From the NCBI GenBank assembly GCA_018713165.1, contig DVFR01000046.1:6637-70636 (forward strand): a stretch of DNA of 64,000 bases. The letters run 5' to 3'. A program made the position numbers and the translations under genes. The notes beneath the pieces are model-generated. The model had not been told where the DNA came from, made no database searches, and worked only from the letters and a program-made list of their open reading frames with translations. Source of the stretch: Candidatus Coproplasma stercoravium. GTDB taxonomy: Bacteria; Bacillota; Clostridia; Christensenellales; Borkfalkiaceae. Position 1 is the stretch's first letter; each line of letters opens with the position of its first letter. Shown here piece after piece: positions 1,635 through 63,524 of this stretch.

Positions 1635-1680
1635 TTAACCGGGCAAATAATTAAGGTTAAAATTTTTTAAAATAATAATT

Positions 1681-1855
1681 GTGCGCAAGCAGGGTTTCCC
1701 TGCGCCGGCGCGACCCTATTTGCTGCGGTCAGCAGGCTCACTGGAAGTGAATGGCGGCATTTCTATATGTGAGGGCAACAGCAATGCCGCCAGAGAAACT
1801 TAGTTTCTGAAAATCACGAAATTTTTACGGCGCGCAAGACGTAAAAATTTGTGAA
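1681..1855 (+). repeat. repeat family Y, copy 1 (~175 nt, six predicted helices), ending 12 nt before the ruvA ATG
   Basis: It aligns with 2527-2697 and with the reverse complement of 62447-62619. The helices are kept by compensatory changes (details in findings). Confidence 0.8.
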
Positions 1856-1866
1856 CAGGTTTATAT

Positions 1867-2457: not shown

Positions 2458-2526
2458 TATAGCGTATTGCATATTTTTACGCCGTCACCTGCGCGTAAAT
2501 CTGTGAGGAAGATACAAATAAATAAC

Positions 2527-2697
2527 GTTTCAAGCAAGGTTTCCTTGCGCAGAAAGACTCAATTTGCCGCGTAAGCGGGCTCACCGGGGTGAATCACCCC
2601 GATTAAATTATCGAGGGCTCCTGAAAATCGGGGCGAAAGGGGCTGGCCCCTCAAATCACGGAATTTTTAGCGCGCGGCCCGCGCTAAAAATTCGTGA
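2527..2697 (+). repeat. repeat family Y, copy 2, ending 15 nt before the ruvB ATG
   Basis: It is close to identical to the reverse complement of 62447-62619 over most of its length. Confidence 0.85.
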
Positions 2698-2712
2698 GAA
2701 GGATGTTTTGTT

Positions 2713-3783
2713 ATGTTTTTCGACGACGAAGAATACGGCGGCGAGGACGACAGGCTTGTAAAGAGCACCAAGGGCGAATACGACGTTGAAGAGAACGTCC
2801 TGCGCCCCAAAACTCTTGCAGACTATGTCGGACAGGCCAAGGTAAAGGAAAATTTAAACGTCTACATGGCGGCGGCGAAAAAGAGGGGCGAGGCGCTCGA
2901 GCACGTCCTTTTATACGGCGCGCCCGGACTGGGCAAAACCACGCTCGCGCACATTATCGCAAACGAAATGGGCGGTCAGCTCAAGCTCACTTCCGCCCCC
3001 GCGATAGAGCGCAGCGCCGACCTTGCGGCAATTCTCACCAACCTCAACGACGGCGACGTGCTCTTCATCGACGAAATTCACCGTTTAAGCCACAGCGTGG
3101 AGGAGATTTTATATTCGGCAATGGAGGACTACGCGCTCGACATAATCGTCGGCAAGGGCCCCAGCGCGCGCAATATCCGCTTTTCGCTCAAAAAATTCAC
3201 GCTGATAGGCGCAACCACCCGCGCGGGCATGATTGCAACCCCCTTAAGAAACCGCTTCGGCATAATCTGCCGTCTCGAAATGTACACGCCCTCCGAACTC
3301 AAAGAGATTGTGCTTAAAAGCGCGGGCAAGCTCGGCATAGAGATAGAGCCGGATGCCGCTGCCGAAATTTCCAAGCGTTCGCGCGGCACGCCGCGAATTG
3401 CCAACAGGCTGTTAAAGCGCGTGCGCGACTTTTCGGAGATACGCGGCGCGGGAAAAGTTTCGTTGGACGACGCGCGCTTCGCGCTCGGCAGAATGGACAT
3501 CGACGAACTCGGGCTTGACGAAACCGACCGCGCGATTCTGCGCGCCATGATTGAAAAGTTCGACGGCAAGCCCGTCGGGCTCGAAACGCTCGCCGCCACG
3601 GTAAACGAGGACGCGGGCACGATAGAGGACGTTTACGAACCCTATCTTCTGCAGCTCGGTTTTATCGCCCGCACTCCGCGCGGCAGGGTAATTCTGCGCG
3701 GCGGATACGAACATCTCGGATATAAAATAACCGAAAGGCAGGCGGCGCAGCTTTCGGTTTTCGATAAAGAAGAAAATGACTGA
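2713..3783 (+). CDS. ruvB: Holliday junction branch migration DNA helicase RuvB
   Basis: 356 aa. Contains [12 protein letters not shown] and the Walker A motif GAPGLGKTT. The C-terminal part fits a RuvB winged helix. Confidence 0.95.
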
Positions 3784-4871: not shown

Positions 4872-4973
4872 TCGCATTGCGGTGTCGCCGTTACGGGTGT
4901 GTTCAGTCATTTACTTTTTTGTAAACTCCTTCACACCTTCCGCCGGCTCCTTGCACTGCTTGCATCTCTGAAG
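4872..4973 (+). repeat. repeat family X, copy 2
   Basis: See copy 1. A 3'-half fragment is also present at 62645-62678. Confidence 0.75.
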
Positions 4974-5016
4974 TTATGATGAACACCTATTATAAGGTGG
5001 TTATTAAAAAAATAAT

Positions 5017-5049
5017 GTGCGCTGGCGCAGTGGAACCCTGCTTGCGCAC
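5017..5049 (-). repeat. family Y fragment (helix P1 region only), inverted
   Basis: gtgcgctggcgcagtggaaccctgcttgcgcac is close to the reverse complement of 1681-1712. Confidence 0.55.
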
Positions 5050-5071
5050 GCGATTCATTTTAAAAAATTAT

Positions 5072-5122
5072 TGTCATTTTGAGCGAAGGCGATAGCTGAA
5101 GTCGAAAAATCTATTCCGCATT
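5072..5122 (+). repeat. repeat family Z, copy 1
   Basis: tgtcattttgagcgaaggcgatagctgaagtcgaaaaatctattccgcatt aligns with 62705-62752. Confidence 0.65.
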
Positions 5123-5125
5123 GTA

Positions 5126-5339
5126 GCCTCCCCTTGTGTAAATGGGGAGTCCCACACCGAGCCCCCCTTGTGTAAAGGGGAACTCCCTACACCGAGCCTC
5201 CCCTTGTGTAAAGGGGAACTCCCTACACCGAGCCCCCCTTGTGTAAATGGGGAATCCCACACCGAGCCCCCCTTGTGTAAAGGGGGAATCCCACACCGAG
5301 CCCCCCTTGTGTAAAGGGGGGAATTAAAGGGGGGATTGT
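5126..5339 (+). repeat. tandem array (minisatellite) of about 6 units of 34-36 bp, each with the hairpin CCCCTT-gtgta-AAGGGG
   Basis: Units start at 5126, 5161, 5196, 5232, 5266 and 5300. The linker (a/g)a(a/c)tccc(t)acaccga is the same in all units. The array ends with gaattaaaggggggattgt. Confidence 0.9.
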
Positions 5340-27719: not shown

Positions 27720-27797
27720 CGGAAAAAGAGCAGGCGAATTTAGTTCGCCGATACCTCTTTTTCTCGACTTTATAAAAATCTCACGGCAAAGATTTTT
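27720..27797 (+). repeat. repeat family V, copy 1 (nested hairpin plus the ctcacggcaaagattttt tail)
   Basis: cggaaaaagagcaggcgaatttagttcgccgatacctctttttctcgactttataaaaatctcacggcaaagattttt. Confidence 0.7.
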
Positions 27798-27830
27798 GCA
27801 CAGCAAAAAGATTTGCGTGAACTGTGTTAT

Positions 27831-29765: not shown

Positions 29766-31595
29766 ATGGTAAGAAACGATTTACGCAACGTGGCGATAAT
29801 CGCGCACGTAGACCACGGCAAAACAACGCTCGTCGACGCAATGCTCAAGCAGAGCCATGCATTCAGGGAAAATCAGGCGGTGGAGGAGAGGGTTATGGAC
29901 TCCAACGCCATCGAGCGCGAGCGCGGCATAACAATTCTCGCAAAAAACACTTCGGTACGCTATAACGGCGTAAAGATAAACATAGTCGACACCCCCGGCC
30001 ACGCCGACTTTTCGGGCGAGGTAGAGAGGGTTATGATGATGGTAAACGGCGTGCTCGTCCTCGTCGACGCCGCCGAAGGCCCCATGCCCCAGACGCGCTT
30101 CGTCGTTCAGAAGGCGCTGGAGATGGGTCACAGACTTATAATCGTCGTAAATAAGATTGACCGTCCCGACGCCCGCCTTTCCGAGGTGCAGGACGAAATA
30201 CTCGAACTTTTAATGGAGCTCGACGCCTCCGACGACCAGCTCATGAGCCCCGTCGTATGGTGCTCGGGCAGAAACGGCACCGCCACCCTCGATTTGAACA
30301 CCCCCGGCAAGGACCTCACGCCCCTGTTCGATACCATACTTACGCACATTCAGCCCATGGAAGTCGACGAAAAGGGCGGCGCGCAGCTCCTCGTATCCTC
30401 GATAGACTACAACGACTACGTCGGAAGAATAGGCATAGGCAGGATAGAGCGCGGCGAAATTCTGCAGGGTCAGTCGGTAGTCGTCACCAACTACAACAAC
30501 CAACAGATGAAGCTCGCGGGAAAGATAGCCAACCTCTACCAGATAGAGGGGCTGAACCGCGTTCCATGCGAAAGGGCGATAGCGGGCGACATCGTATGCT
30601 TTTCGGGACTTGAAAAGATAAACATCGGCGACACTGTTTGTTCGCCCGACTGCGTGGAGCCGCACAAATTCGTAAAAATTTCAGAGCCCACCGTCGAGAT
30701 GACCTTCTCTGTAAACGACTCGCCCTTTGCGGGTAAAGAGGGCAAGTGGGTAACCACCAGGCATCTTCGCGAAAGGCTCTTCCGCGAACTTTTGAAGGAC
30801 GTGTCTTTGAGGGTTGAGGAGACCGACTCTGCCGACAGCTACCGCGTCTGCGGCAGGGGCGAAATGCACCTATCCATTTTAATAGAAAACATGCGCCGCG
30901 AGGGCTACGAATTCCAGGTATCCACGCCCCGCGTGCTCTTCAAAGAGATTGACGGCGTAAAATGCGAGCCCATGGAGCGCCTTATCGTCGACGTTCCCGA
31001 CGAATTTTCGGGCGCGGTATTCCAGAGCATGGGCGAGAGGAAGGGCGAGCTCATGCACATGAGCGCCGTCGGCAGCCGCACGAGGCTGGAATTCATAATT
31101 CCCGCCCGCGGACTCTTCGGCTACAAGAGCGAATTTTTAACGGCGACGAAAGGCGAGGGTGTGTTCTCCTCGGTATTCTTCGAGTATCAGCCCTACAAGG
31201 GCGAGTTCTCGCGCAGGAGCACCGGTTCGCTCGTTGCGTTTGAAACGGGCGAGGCCGTAACTTACGGTCTCTATAATGCGCAGGGCCGCGGAACGCTGTT
31301 CATCGGTCCCGGCACGCAGGTGTACGAGGGCATGGTTATAGGCGAAAGTCCCAAGAGCGAGGATATAAACGTAAACGTCTGCAAACAAAAGCACCTCACC
31401 AACACGCGCTCCTCGTCGAGCGACGACGCGCTCCGCCTCATCACTCCCAAGCGCATGAGTCTGGAGGAGTGCCTCGAATTTATCGCCGACGACGAACTTC
31501 TTGAAATAACGCCCAAAAATATCCGTATCCGCAAGCGTATTCTCGATTCAGAGCTGAGGGCGAAGGCTAATGCCAAGGCAAAGAAGGGGCTTTGA
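29766..31595 (+). CDS. typA: translational GTPase TypA/BipA
   Basis: 609 aa. Contains [25 protein letters not shown] and NKID. Confidence 0.95.
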
Positions 31596-31640
31596 TTAAA
31601 CTTTCCTCAACATAAAAAACCAAATTCAAGCATATATAAA

Positions 31641-31667
31641 TACTGCCGCACAGGCAGTAATTTTTTT
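31641..31667 (+). terminator. intrinsic terminator after typA
   Basis: TACTGCC-gcaca-GGCAGTA followed by a and T7. Confidence 0.7.
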
Positions 31668-44602: not shown

Positions 44603-44829
44603 CAATACCAACACTCTTGCCCCCTTGTGTAAAGAGGGGAATTAACAATACCAACACTCTTGCCCCCTTGTGTAAAGAGGGGAATTAACAATACCAACAC
44701 TCTTGCCCCCTTGTGTAAAGGGGGAATTAATAATACCAACACTCTTGCCCCCCTTGTGTAAAGGGGGAATTAATAATACCAACACTCTTGCCCCCCTTGT
44801 GTAAAGGGGGGAATTAAAGGGGGGATTGT
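44603..44829 (+). repeat. tandem array of 5 units of 42-43 bp with the same CCCCTT-gtgta-AAGGGG hairpin core
   Basis: Units start at 44603, 44646, 44689, 44731 and 44774. The linker is aattaa(c/t)aataccaacactctt. The last ~40 nt match 5300-5339. Confidence 0.9.
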
Positions 44830-61525: not shown

Positions 61526-62437
61526 ATGATTGACAAACTGATAAAAAAGATAATCGATATGCAGAACCCCACTTGCGTGGGGCTCGACACCAGCTTCGAT
61601 TACCTGCCCGACAACATGCGCGAGGACATGGCTACCTTCGAGGGCGCGTCCGAGGCGATAACCGAATTCAACATGAACATCGTCGATAAGATAAGCGACA
61701 TTGTGCCCGCAATAAAGGTACAGGTCGCCTACTACGAGATGTACGGCTACGAAGGGCTCAAAGCTTTCAACTACACAATAAATTACGCGCTCGGCAGGGG
61801 CATGATTGTAATTGCCGACTGCAAGCGCAACGACATAGGTTCCACCGCGGGCTGCTATGCAACGGCATACCTCGGCCGCACCAAGATAAACGAAAAACTT
61901 ATGCGCGCCTTCCCCGCGGATATGCTCACGATAAACGGCTATCTCGGCACCGACGGCGTCGCTCCCTTTGTGGAGGAGTGCAAGGCGTGCAACAAGGGCG
62001 CCTTCGTGCTCGTAAAAACTTCCAACCCTTCGAGCGGCGAAATTCAGGATTTGAAGCTCGAAAGCGGCGAAAAGGTTTATGAGCGCATGGGCTTGCTCGT
62101 TGCCGAGTGGGGCAAAGACCTCATCGGTCACTACGGCTATTCTGATATCGGCGCGGTAGTCGGCGCAACCTATCCCGAGCAGGGTGCCGAACTCAGGAAG
62201 AAGTTGCCCCATACATTCTTCCTTATCCCCGGCTACGGCGCGCAGGGCGGCTCTGCCGACGGAATCAAGGGCTGTTTCGACGGGCGCGGCCTCGGCGGGA
62301 TAGTAAACAACTCCCGCGGCATACTCTGCGCGTACCGCAAACCGCAGTACAGCGGCATGACATATTGGGAGGCCGCCAGAGCTGCGTGCATCGATATGAG
62401 GGAAGATTTGCGCCGCGCCATCGGCAAAATGGGTTAA
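61526..62437 (+). CDS. pyrF: orotidine 5'-phosphate decarboxylase (long type 2)
   Basis: 303 aa. Contains CVGLD, VIADCKRNDIGST and IPGYGAQGG. Confidence 0.85.
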   Translation: MIDKLIKKIIDMQNPTCVGLDTSFDYLPDNMREDMATFEGASEAITEFNMNIVDKISDIVPAIKVQVAYYEMYGYEGLKAFNYTINYALGRGMIVIADCKRNDIGSTAGCYATAYLGRTKINEKLMRAFPADMLTINGYLGTDGVAPFVEECKACNKGAFVLVKTSNPSSGEIQDLKLESGEKVYERMGLLVAEWGKDLIGHYGYSDIGAVVGATYPEQGAELRKKLPHTFFLIPGYGAQGGSADGIKGCFDGRGLGGIVNNSRGILCAYRKPQYSGMTYWEAARAACIDMREDLRRAIGKMG

Positions 62438-62446
62438 AAAAAGTTT

Positions 62447-62619
62447 TCACAAAATTTTGCGGCTTGCGCGCCGAAAAATTTTTGTGAATTTTAGGGGCGC
62501 CGCCCCTCTTGCCCCGATTTATAGGAGCCCTCGATTATATAATCGGGGCAATTCACCCTCGGTGAGCTCGCTTGCGCGACAAATTGTGTCTTTCTGCGCA
62601 AGGAAACCTTGCTTGAAAC
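62447..62619 (-). repeat. repeat family Y, copy 3 (inverted relative to the flanking pyr genes)
   Basis: The reverse complement reads gtttcaagcaaggtttccttgcgcagaaagacacaatttgtcgcgcaagcgagctcaccgagggtgaat..., matching copy 2. Confidence 0.85.
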
Positions 62620-62644
62620 ATTTATTATTTTAGAATTTTTGGTG

Positions 62645-62678: not shown

Positions 62679-62704
62679 CTCACTGTGCCGCAGAATGATT
62701 ATTA

Positions 62705-62752
62705 TGTCATTTCGAGCGAAGCGTAGCGTAGCCGAGAAATCTCTTCCGTATT
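62705..62752 (+). repeat. repeat family Z, copy 2
   Basis: tgtcatttcgagcgaagcgtagcgtagccgagaaatctcttccgtatt. Confidence 0.65.
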
Positions 62753-62762
62753 TTAAACTATC

Positions 62763-63524
62763 ATGAAAGAATTACTTGCAACTGTAAAAGAAAACAGAGA
62801 ATTAGCAAAGGATATCCGGGCTATAACGCTCACTTTGCCCGAGCCCGTCGGAAAAATAAAAGGCGGGCAGTTCGCCAACCTCTCCGCGGGCGATAAGTCC
62901 TTTCCCTTAAAGCGCCCCCTCGGCATATGCGAGGTCAACAATAACGACATAACGCTCTGCTATCAGTTAAAGGGCGAAGGTACGCGCAGTATTTCGAGTG
63001 CGGAGGCGGGGGACAAGCTTTCGGTGCTTCTTCCGCTCGGCAACGGTTTCGACCTCGGCGGGGCGCATAATATCGCCGTTGTCGGAGGCGGCGTGGGGAT
63101 TTTTCCCCTTGCGGCGGTTATAAGCGAGTACGCAGGCAAAAAGAACTTTTTCTCATACATAGGCTTCCGGGGAGCAGAATACGCCTGCCTTACCGAAAGG
63201 TTTGAACGGGGCGGCAAACTTATTGTCGCCACCGACGACGGCAGTATCGGCTTTCACGGAAACGCCGTCCAGGCTTTCCTTGCCGACTATGAGGAGGGTA
63301 AATTCGACCTTATTATCTCCTGCGGGCCTCCCGTAATGCTCCGCGCGTTAAAGTCCGCGCTTAAAGAGCGCAAAATAAACACAAAGTGCTTCGTATCTTT
63401 GGAGGAGCGCATGGGCTGCGGCATAGGCGCGTGCCTCGTGTGCGCGTGCAAAAAGACCGACGGGCACAACGCCCGCGTCTGCAAAGACGGACCCGTGTTC
63501 GACATAACGGAGGTGGAGCTGTGA
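62763..63524 (+). CDS. pyrK: dihydroorotate dehydrogenase electron-transfer subunit
   Basis: 253 aa. FAD/NAD-binding fold and a C-terminal 2Fe-2S motif CGIGACLVCAC. Confidence 0.9.
   Translation: MKELLATVKENRELAKDIRAITLTLPEPVGKIKGGQFANLSAGDKSFPLKRPLGICEVNNNDITLCYQLKGEGTRSISSAEAGDKLSVLLPLGNGFDLGGAHNIAVVGGGVGIFPLAAVISEYAGKKNFFSYIGFRGAEYACLTERFERGGKLIVATDDGSIGFHGNAVQAFLADYEEGKFDLIISCGPPVMLRALKSALKERKINTKCFVSLEERMGCGIGACLVCACKKTDGHNARVCKDGPVFDITEVEL

Follow-up and report, generated by a model that had tools for sequence, protein, structure and literature searches.

Introduction

Structured intergenic repeats such as the REP/BIME, BOX, bcr and Correia elements are widespread in bacteria and mostly unexplained. 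In the Bacillus cereus group, bcr1 repeats of about 155 bp contain predicted stem-loops with compensatory changes, are transcribed together with their neighbours and occupy strain-variable sites (PMC3184786). BOX and BIME/REP elements consist of mosaic sub-units that lie alone or in arrays in intergenic DNA, often at gene 3' ends, and are structured without a transposase of their own; that review mentions no multi-helix fold, conserved junctions or tertiary covariation for BOX or REP (PMC3184786).

Here, we analysed a 64,000-nucleotide stretch of DNA from Candidatus Coproplasma stercoravium (contig DVFR01000046.1, positions 6,637 to 70,636, referred to as the window), which carries several copies of a structured intergenic repeat labelled family Y. 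Coproplasma is a genus of chicken-gut metagenome-assembled genomes (MAGs). An earlier note, based on the letters of the window alone, had described the copies and six of their helices. We show that one strand of the unit folds into a defined multi-helix structure, in which the stems are free to change while pairing and joining sequences are kept. Comparison of the copies leads us to favour, at a probability of roughly 45%, a non-autonomous, recombining, structured repeat that most likely acts as a co-transcribed RNA.

Results

The Y unit folds into seven helices

Using nhmmer and BLASTN with a profile built from three copies, we located three full copies in the window, termed c1, c2 and c3, at 1682-1856 (+), 2527-2698 (+) and 62446-62619 (-), with E-values from 6e-60 to 8e-69. 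These coordinates agree to within 1-2 nt with those of the earlier note, and the matches widen to 1660, 2506 and 62426 in the nhmmer/BLASTN output (lower coordinate of c1, c2 and c3, respectively). In addition, a 5' fragment was matched at ~5016-5068 on the minus strand (nhmmer E = 3e-5 to 3e-4, model positions 2-41/55). The analysed loci are denoted by L-numbers (e.g. L037).

The unit is 175-190 nt long and starts with an 18-nt A-rich leader, TT.TAAAATAAT.AAYG, which is followed by helices P0 to P6 and a 3' end reading GTGA(A/G)C. Comparison of the flanks revealed no conserved sequence upstream of the leader, and 3' of GTGA(A/G)C the flanks are unrelated among copies, save for a mild T-richness at +5 to +10. 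RNAalifold analysis of 38 distinct copies predicted seven helices, comprising all six that had been named before and a seventh, P0, which closes P1. The P1 apex GGUUUCC is invariant, as is P3 (UCAC/GUGA). The P2 loops are of the type G...A in 36 of the 38 copies, mostly GNRA when read on the sense strand (GCAA, GAAA, GUAA, GGAA, GUGA, GAGA, GGCA, GGUCA and others). P4 spans 11 bp and carries an apical loop of ~24 nt with AUAAUCGNGGGC, and P5 is a 6-bp hairpin. The ~17 bp of P6 combine A/T-rich arms with a GC apex, which is preceded by T5 and followed by A5 on both strands. The joining segments CAAUUUG, GCUCAC, GUGAAU, AGAG and UCAA are nearly invariant, and minimum-free-energy z-scores of single copies against shuffles range from -3.5 to -4.3.

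In all copies, the 4-bp helix UCAC/GUGA is used twice per unit, in P3 and at the base of P6. A partner swap between the two (60-63 with 179-182 and 69-72 with 141-144) could in principle take place; both helices are invariant.

Stem changes preserve pairing in two sets of copies

Pairing across the copies was compared with two controls. The slid-partner control moves the partners by 1-3 columns and keeps the relatedness of the copies, and the shuffle control takes no account of it. In the first set of 38 copies, 96.2% of the cells were paired, compared with 30-49% for slid partners. Changes on both sides were seen in 32 of the 52 pairs, double-change cells numbered 342 versus 18-75 with slid partners, and the observed values were matched by none of 500 shuffles. 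A separate set of 51 metagenome copies gave 96.9% paired cells (33-48% slid), both-side changes in 36 of the 52 pairs and 528 double-change cells (48-119 slid). Nearly every change replaces one Watson-Crick pair by another. Diversity differs strongly between stems, with 21 haplotypes for P4 and 32 for P6, almost all fully paired, versus two for P1 and five for P0 among the 38 copies.

Loss of covariation upon adding copies had been set out beforehand by the earlier note as the outcome that would speak against its proposal of selection on pairing and not on stem sequence. This loss did not occur in the 51 further copies, and both sets strongly support the proposal, which extends to a tertiary contact.

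The P3 loop covaries with P5

When mutual information was computed for all column pairs, column 68 with 133 and column 67 with 132, which link the P3 loop to P5, were the top pairs outside the helices and level with true base pairs. In the 89 distinct copies, columns 68/133 read GC in 47, AU in 37, UG in three and GU in two. The register is parallel (67-132, 68-133), which makes the final two bases of the loop a mirror of the P5 5' strand. Accordingly, loops ending in AA go with P5 AGAAAC, those in AG with AGGAAC or AGGAGC, those in GG with AGGGGC, those in GA with AGAGGC and those in GU with AGCGGC. Relative to P5 base pairs 3 and 4, the loop bases on the 3' side are A with A-U, G with G-C and U with C-G, which gives the putative triple columns 68 with 123:133 and 67 with 124:132. 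Both mirror identities are obeyed in 79 of the 89 copies, compared with a mean of 27 and a maximum of 44 in permutations, and the exceptions are mostly visibly chimeric or degenerate copies. In a sub-family with a longer P5, the mirror match grows to five bases (GAGGG/GGGAG and GGGGG/GGGGG).

This pattern looks like a docking of P3 onto P5 through putative base triples A.A-U and G.G-C. The core triples of tRNA likewise show like-with-like purine covariation, found by comparative analysis, of a single base with a helix pair (9.[12:23], 45.[10:25] and 46.[13:22]). The likeness is one of pattern only, and neither a tRNA-like sequence nor a cloverleaf is present in the Y unit. Watson-Crick pairing between the P3 loop and the 3' strand of P5 in antiparallel orientation was ruled out as the origin of the 68/133 signal, since the bases match in parallel register and the T1/T2 classes would be left unexplained. 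Normalised mutual information was 0.81 for loop-P5, 0.50 for loop-P4, 0.44 for P4-P5 and 0.16 for loop-P2. The loop-P5 coupling outlasts the reshuffling of P4, which lies between the two partners, and is not explained by self-correction of hairpins. Over all column pairs, no other long-range covariation was comparable; column 64 is linked more weakly to the base that ends the P5 loop.

Y is a multi-copy, non-coding element of one genus

An exact-pattern scan, with three P1 pairs, all of P2 and the P3 loop left free, was run on one genome per species for 185,579 species and yielded 41 sites, all in Candidatus Coproplasma or 'uncultured Clostridia' MAGs and several per genome. The same pattern was present on 55 metagenome contigs and gave no match in viral contigs, and BLASTN found none in plasmid and phage collections. 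Profile search of ~870 kb around copies returned 183 matches, of which 109 were full-length (96 distinct sequences) and 74 partial. The unit is thus restricted to one uncultured genus, non-coding and multi-copy, and we estimate that a Coproplasma genome holds tens of copies. The species of the window turns up in many ENA metagenome assemblies. Among the matches listed for literature mentioning Coproplasma there was no work on repeats, and a literature search for EFAR repeats returned only unrelated papers.

One end of the unit is anchored at reading-frame edges

Copies are found only between genes, with the P6 end either ~0-10 nt from a convergent stop codon or ~10-25 nt 5' of a co-oriented start. 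Among the 103 full copies, 60 have a convergent stop of an open reading frame (ORF) of at least 100 aa at the P6 end, 55 of them within 10 nt and 21 within 2 nt; the junction often reads GTGARC followed by TTA, TCA or CTA. A co-oriented start at a median distance of 13 nt was seen in 23 of the 103, with a Shine-Dalgarno-like motif in 20 of these 23, and the remaining 20 full copies were unplaced. On the leader side, 20-500 nt separate the unit from the next gene and are filled by other repeat modules or further tandem units. Only one of ~38 classified copies lies in the spacer of divergent genes. Sense copies stand inside housekeeping gene clusters, as in ruvC-[Y]-ruvA-[Y]-ruvB, rimP-[Y]-nusA and infA-[Y]-rpmJ.

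Clustering of the flanking ORFs, first 349 and then 797 from ~870 kb, returned as recurring proteins only orthologous or paralogous housekeeping families, and there was no transposase, tnpA, tnpB or other mobility gene among the 797. An ORF between two inverted copies, considered as a RAYT candidate, is rimP.

Copies persist at orthologous sites while their helices are exchanged

Single copies have stayed at orthologous positions in species between which neutral sites are close to saturated. In both the window species and Candidatus C. stercoripullorum, ruvA is flanked by two copies. Copy c2 is 84% identical to its orthologue (L037 7224-7397), while four-fold sites of ruvA are 56% identical. 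The orthologue of c1 (L037 6432-6604) lies at the same place and is a chimera with a broken P4. In four loci, a copy lies 1 nt after the hslU stop codon.

At the same time, helices are replaced, cassette by cassette, with those of other copies, and this holds even for strains whose neutral sites are 97% identical. In loci L065 and L089, four-fold sites of hslU are 97% identical and the elements 81%, with the P3 loop, P4 and P5 replaced jointly. At the pyrF site, the state of the loop inserts (~125 nt in the P1 loop plus ~55 nt in the P2 loop, present or absent) and two P5/P6 cassettes occur in all four combinations on contigs with identical PyrF. Strain variants of c3 (L045-L047) carry such inserts in both of these loops along with an exchanged P5/P6 cassette, and their P1-loop insert is also present in another species. 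A long variant of the unit carries a ~108-nt insert between P4 and P5; in L010 and L029, this insert makes up the alternative 3' region, which no long ORF follows. One strain has c1 without P6. Thus, the family is old at many sites and is rewritten helix by helix, and every rewritten helix pairs.

Two sites of the window are empty though filled in other species, one from 40232 onward, where a classic terminator stands, and one at 31595-31666 with a 70-nt spacer. Exact empty-site junctions could not be set there, the orthologous regions of the other species being too diverged in nucleotides to define insertion boundaries. Within the window species there was no empty site, only internal indels and cassette swaps. 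Separately, L018 6283-6561 is a tandem duplication of a whole Y unit with 40 nt of 3' flank, in which the convergent gene has its final codons and its stop; the duplication could stem from read-through or one-ended copying, or else from unequal recombination.

These data also bear on whether Y is an ordinary decaying repeat without constraint, whose covariation would come from a few ancestral hairpin variants plus self-correction of palindromes. The cassette-like variation, for instance of P1 and P0, and a shuffle control blind to relatedness would suit such an origin. It is largely ruled out, and we give it very little credence, in view of the many fully paired haplotypes of P4 and P6, the 96-97% pairing against 30-49% in the relatedness-keeping slid-partner controls, the conservation of c2 beyond that of four-fold sites, and a loop-helix coupling that reaches across the reshuffled P4 and goes beyond hairpin self-correction.

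Window copies and neighbouring repeat modules

The 3' end of c1 lies 10 nt upstream of the ruvA ATG (1867). Copy c2 stands between the ruvA stop (2457) and the ruvB ATG (2713), with its 3' end ~14 nt before the latter. Copy c3 is located between pyrF (stop 62435-62437) and pyrK (start 62763) and is antisense to both, with 8 nt between its P6 end and the pyrF stop codon. Positions of the copies and their parts are compiled in Table 1. Lone P6 hairpins were sought by a fold-based search, since bulges defeat an ungapped palindrome search. The hairpin found in this way scores weakly with nhmmer (E = 3), and its assignment to the family rests on its shape, common termini and orthologous position; at the orthologous site in another species, four tandem units with the same end point occupy L016 5533-6201.

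Table 1 Family Y features in the window
Feature	Position	Strand	Remarks
c1, whole	1663-1856	+	A-rich leader ~1663-1680; terminal AC 1855-1856
c1 helices P0, P1	1683-1686/1708-1711; 1689-1694/1698-1703	+	
c1 helices P2, P3	1723-1726/1732-1735; 1738-1741/1747-1750	+	P3 loop 1742-1746
c1 helices P4, P5, P6	1752-1762/1782-1792; 1794-1799/1803-1808; 1814-1854	+	
c2, whole	2510-2699	+	Leader ~2512-2527; core 2527-2699
c2 parts	P3 loop 2585-2588; P5 2638-2651; P6 2656-2697	+	P3 loop CGGG
c3, whole	62445-62637	-	Leader 62635-62619; core 62619-62445; P6 62487-62447
Truncated copy, a lone 5' module	5018-5069	-	A-rich leader and P0/P1 hairpin, then T-run
Lone P6-like hairpin	27781-27820	+	TCACGG...CGTGA, then AC; just 5' of a gene start

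Several further features were noted around the copies. In the window species, L002 (~2990-3001) has c1 without exactly the P6 hairpin and the ribosome-binding-site region, so that ..AAAATCA is joined to the ruvA ATG and no ribosome-binding site can be seen for ruvA; the palindrome may really have been deleted, or the gap may be an artefact of assembly. For pyrK (ATG 62763), no Shine-Dalgarno sequence was recognisable, and repeat modules (62740-62765 region) reach to ~13 nt from the start codon.

Tandem arrays of a ~36-nt unit (CCCCTTTACACAAGGGGGGCTCGGTGTGGGATT-like, each a small hairpin) without spacers lie at 5125-5339 and 44603-44829 and are 72-95% similar to each other and internally. The first stands between queA and tgt, beside the Y fragment, and its length is apparently strain-variable, as the distance from queA to tgt is not the same in L002 and L003. 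A second repeat family, CGGAAKAGATTTYTCG...CGCTTCGCTCRAAATGACA, occurs on the minus strand at 62690-62750 and 5070-5120, lies 15-80 nt upstream of many Y leaders and is also found 5' of Y copies in L005, L013, L017, L021, L026 and L034. A third motif, GAWGCAAGCAGAACG.GGAGCGTGCGGAAGRTGTGAAGG, is located at 4940-4990 (-), upstream of c3, and in L030 and L038. In the ruvC-c1 spacer, 1507-1660 holds a further conserved non-coding block (..GTACACTCCCTCAGGTTTTCCTCGC..GCTCGTATCTCCGAGGGTTAACC..AAGGTTAAA), which is common to the orthologous spacer L037 6150-6430 and whose 3' part precedes Y upstream of rpmJ and of another gene (flanks of L009 and L043). Coproplasma intergenic DNA looks largely made of such modules.

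Discussion

Under the favoured reading, recombination or conversion from copy to copy would spread and refresh the unit, and only well-folded variants would survive. The relevant folded form would most likely be an RNA transcribed with its neighbours, for example in ruvC-ruvA-ruvB, rimP-nusA and infA-rpmJ, and might serve, in cis, as a module for stability, processing or insulation where the adjoining reading frame begins or ends. We favour RNA because sense copies inside operons must be co-transcribed, because the G...A-closed GNRA-type loops are strand-specific, because the junctions are conserved and because the tertiary contact is of a kind seen in folded RNAs. A bolder proposal, which we hold to be unlikely, is that seven helices and the docking of the P3 loop onto P5 define a new compact class of functional RNA with tens of copies, each of which would act on the adjacent frame or with a dedicated protein. 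Such an RNA might be a module that blocks exonucleases or directs processing, a ribozyme that cleaves itself, or a guide/scaffold RNA, and its helices would be deliberately diversified by cassettes.

Several observations weigh against an RNA that is co-transcribed and acts in cis. Of the placed copies, about 60% run antisense to the adjoining gene, and for c3-type copies, which are antisense to both neighbours, the sense strand would need a promoter of its own, none of which was detected. A scan for consensus promoters around c1-c3 found none at conserved positions, and a scan for intrinsic terminators around the same copies gave no sites on either strand. Over all pairs, G-U cells (23, 1.2%) and A-C cells (21, 1.0%) are equally rare, a symmetry that is unusual for an RNA of this size and fits a constraint on both strands or on DNA. 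On these counts, the earlier suggestion that G-T positions mark the plus sense fails, and the P6 site is better read as a bulged G. The mirror pattern of loop and helix would suit either a triplex of the purine motif on the sense strand or one of the pyrimidine motif on the antisense strand, which leaves strand and molecule unfixed; read on the opposite strand it becomes U.A-U and C.G-C, and a DNA triplex would fit too. In part, the link between P3 loop and P5 could reflect shared ancestry of the backbone, with about 7-10 of 89 copies breaking it. Moreover, as the number of cassettes is limited, independent compensatory events are far fewer than the cell counts suggest, and template-switch 'correction' of palindromes might keep short hairpins complementary without selection.

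A near absence of G-U pairs would be expected if both strands, or DNA, did the pairing. Y could then be a mobile or recombinogenic element whose single-stranded, cruciform or H-DNA-like form is recognised by a trans-acting HUH-type or other recombinase, with folding of the RNA being incidental; the ends of IS200/IS605, REP/RAYT and integron attC sites are precedents. IS200/IS605 ends use non-canonical base contacts in single-stranded DNA, the mirror A.A-T and G.G-C is the classical purine-motif DNA triplex, and small G...A-closed loops are very stable in single-stranded DNA as well. Such an element would also suit copies that lie in both orientations relative to genes, other modules that insert precisely in the P1 loop, in the P2 loop or between P4 and P5, tandem arrays that grow on one side, rapid turnover of cassettes, and the lack of detected promoters and terminators. 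Nevertheless, we regard this as an unlikely, if serious, alternative. No transposase or recombinase was found near ~180 matches in 870 kb of loci, there is no conserved target motif or duplication, and the ends are dissimilar, unlike those of IS200/IS605. Furthermore, copies are kept at orthologous sites inside essential operons across species with near-saturated neutral sites, and the joining sequences are conserved far beyond the need of hairpin extrusion.

The promoter scans also bear on whether Y is a family of stand-alone small-RNA genes, in which transcription would start at P0 by way of the TAAAAT-like leader and end after P6, with the RNA acting in trans, for instance as a scaffold or guide in the manner of omega-RNA or bridge-RNA, or as a ribozyme. 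Between the end of the conserved TAAAAT/AATAAT motif and the first paired base lie ~7 nt, a distance suited to a -10 box, and T is mildly enriched 5-10 nt after P6. The fold is compact, its junctions are conserved and a tertiary contact is seen, the sequence is unrelated right after GTGA(A/G)C as for a 3' guide, and c3-type copies are intact despite being antisense to both neighbours. We consider genes of this kind improbable, since a conserved -35 element or TG extension is lacking and the scans for promoters and terminators were negative. In operons, sense copies stand 10-15 nt from the next ribosome-binding site, where a terminator would be polar, and no recurring gene for a partner protein lies nearby. 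Neither omega-RNA nor HEARO families of Rfam match, and fragments and lone modules are common (74 partial versus 109 full matches), as is typical of repeats and not of genes.

The comparative record of Y is unusually clean, with ~90 distinct copies, free stems at 96-97% pairing, a contact seen by covariation and orthologues that can be tracked. Should the fold act as RNA, an uncultured gut lineage would provide a structured RNA of a new class, whose three-dimensional model could be tested. Should it act as DNA, the data would point to a structure-specific recombination system by which single helices are rewritten at a pace above that of neutral divergence. In both cases, the family shows to what extent self-propagating modules, set precisely at the borders of genes, can make up the intergenic DNA in a gut bacterium with a small genome.

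Comparison with known families

The earlier note had been in doubt about a match to Rfam and had named a structured RNA, a cis-acting untranslated-region element and a MITE (a miniature transposable element with inverted repeats) or palindrome-associated transposable element (PATE) derived from IS200/IS605 as options. No Rfam 15 family fits: at gathering thresholds the whole window gave no match, a permissive search (E <= 10) with c1 and c2 turned up nothing beyond chance level (best E = 0.19-0.69, with scores far short of gathering), and the IS605-orfB and HEARO models did not match. As in structured RNAs in general, the fold is conserved with compensatory changes, accompanied by conserved junctions and tertiary covariation; a function at the level of RNA and one at the level of DNA would both fit, and features of MITEs and PATEs were lacking. 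Against a MITE, there are no terminal inverted repeats, the 5' TT.TAAAATAAT.AAYG with P0 not being complementary to the 3' ..TTYGTGARC. The flanks of 44 copies contain no consistent direct repeat that would be a target-site duplication; the 40-nt flank in L018 belongs to the tandem duplication, and L016 shows a doubtful TGAATTT repeat around a 430-nt composite.

With IS200/IS605 PATEs and the omega-RNAs of TnpB/IscB, Y shares that it is non-autonomous, lacks terminal inverted repeats, is structured over ~150-250 nt and has a scaffold that ends where unrelated flank begins. It differs in having no left end, as nothing is conserved 5' of the leader, no 4-5-nt target motif, no tnpA/tnpB in the 797 flanking ORFs, no iscB nearby and no Rfam match, and its end hairpins P1 and P6 are unrelated. 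An integron attC site, which is one imperfect palindrome between the core sites RYYYAAC and GTTRRRY beside cassette ORFs, was likewise rejected: the fold is multi-helix, the reverse-strand GTTCAC misfits GTTRRRY, and the neighbours are housekeeping genes (ruvA/B, hslU, nusA, rpmJ and pyrF). Pneumococcal SPRITE repeats are terminator-like, whereas P6 has its T-run before the stem and not after it, and no site with a stem and U-tract was present on either strand around c1-c3.

BOX of Streptococcus pneumoniae and BIME/REP of enterobacteria resemble Y in being modular, intergenic and without a transposase of their own, with predicted structures. REP/BIME-like mosaic clusters occur: P0/P1 and P5/P6 modules are found alone, units stand in tandem and inserts are nested. 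However, a REP is a single GC-rich palindrome of 20-40 nt and BOX an array of the form boxA-boxB(n)-boxC. Y was rejected as a RAYT-type REP/BIME palindrome, being 175-190 nt long with seven helices, no GTAG-like tetranucleotide and no Y1-transposase-like gene between copies. The bcr1 repeat is likewise a Firmicutes intergenic element of similar size, confined to one lineage and predicted to form stem-loops with compensatory changes. The two have no sequence similarity, bcr1 is flanked by 5-bp direct repeats, of which none was seen for Y, and Y has seven helices with a loop-helix contact, exchange of cassettes and one end at ORF boundaries. The closest analogues are thus bcr1, BOX and BIME, and Y is a member of none of them. 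Its seven-helix fold with a tertiary contact, cassette exchange, anchoring at ORF boundaries and restriction to one genus set it apart from all these families, and it is a new, unclassified family within a known broad kind, the structured interspersed repeats of bacteria.

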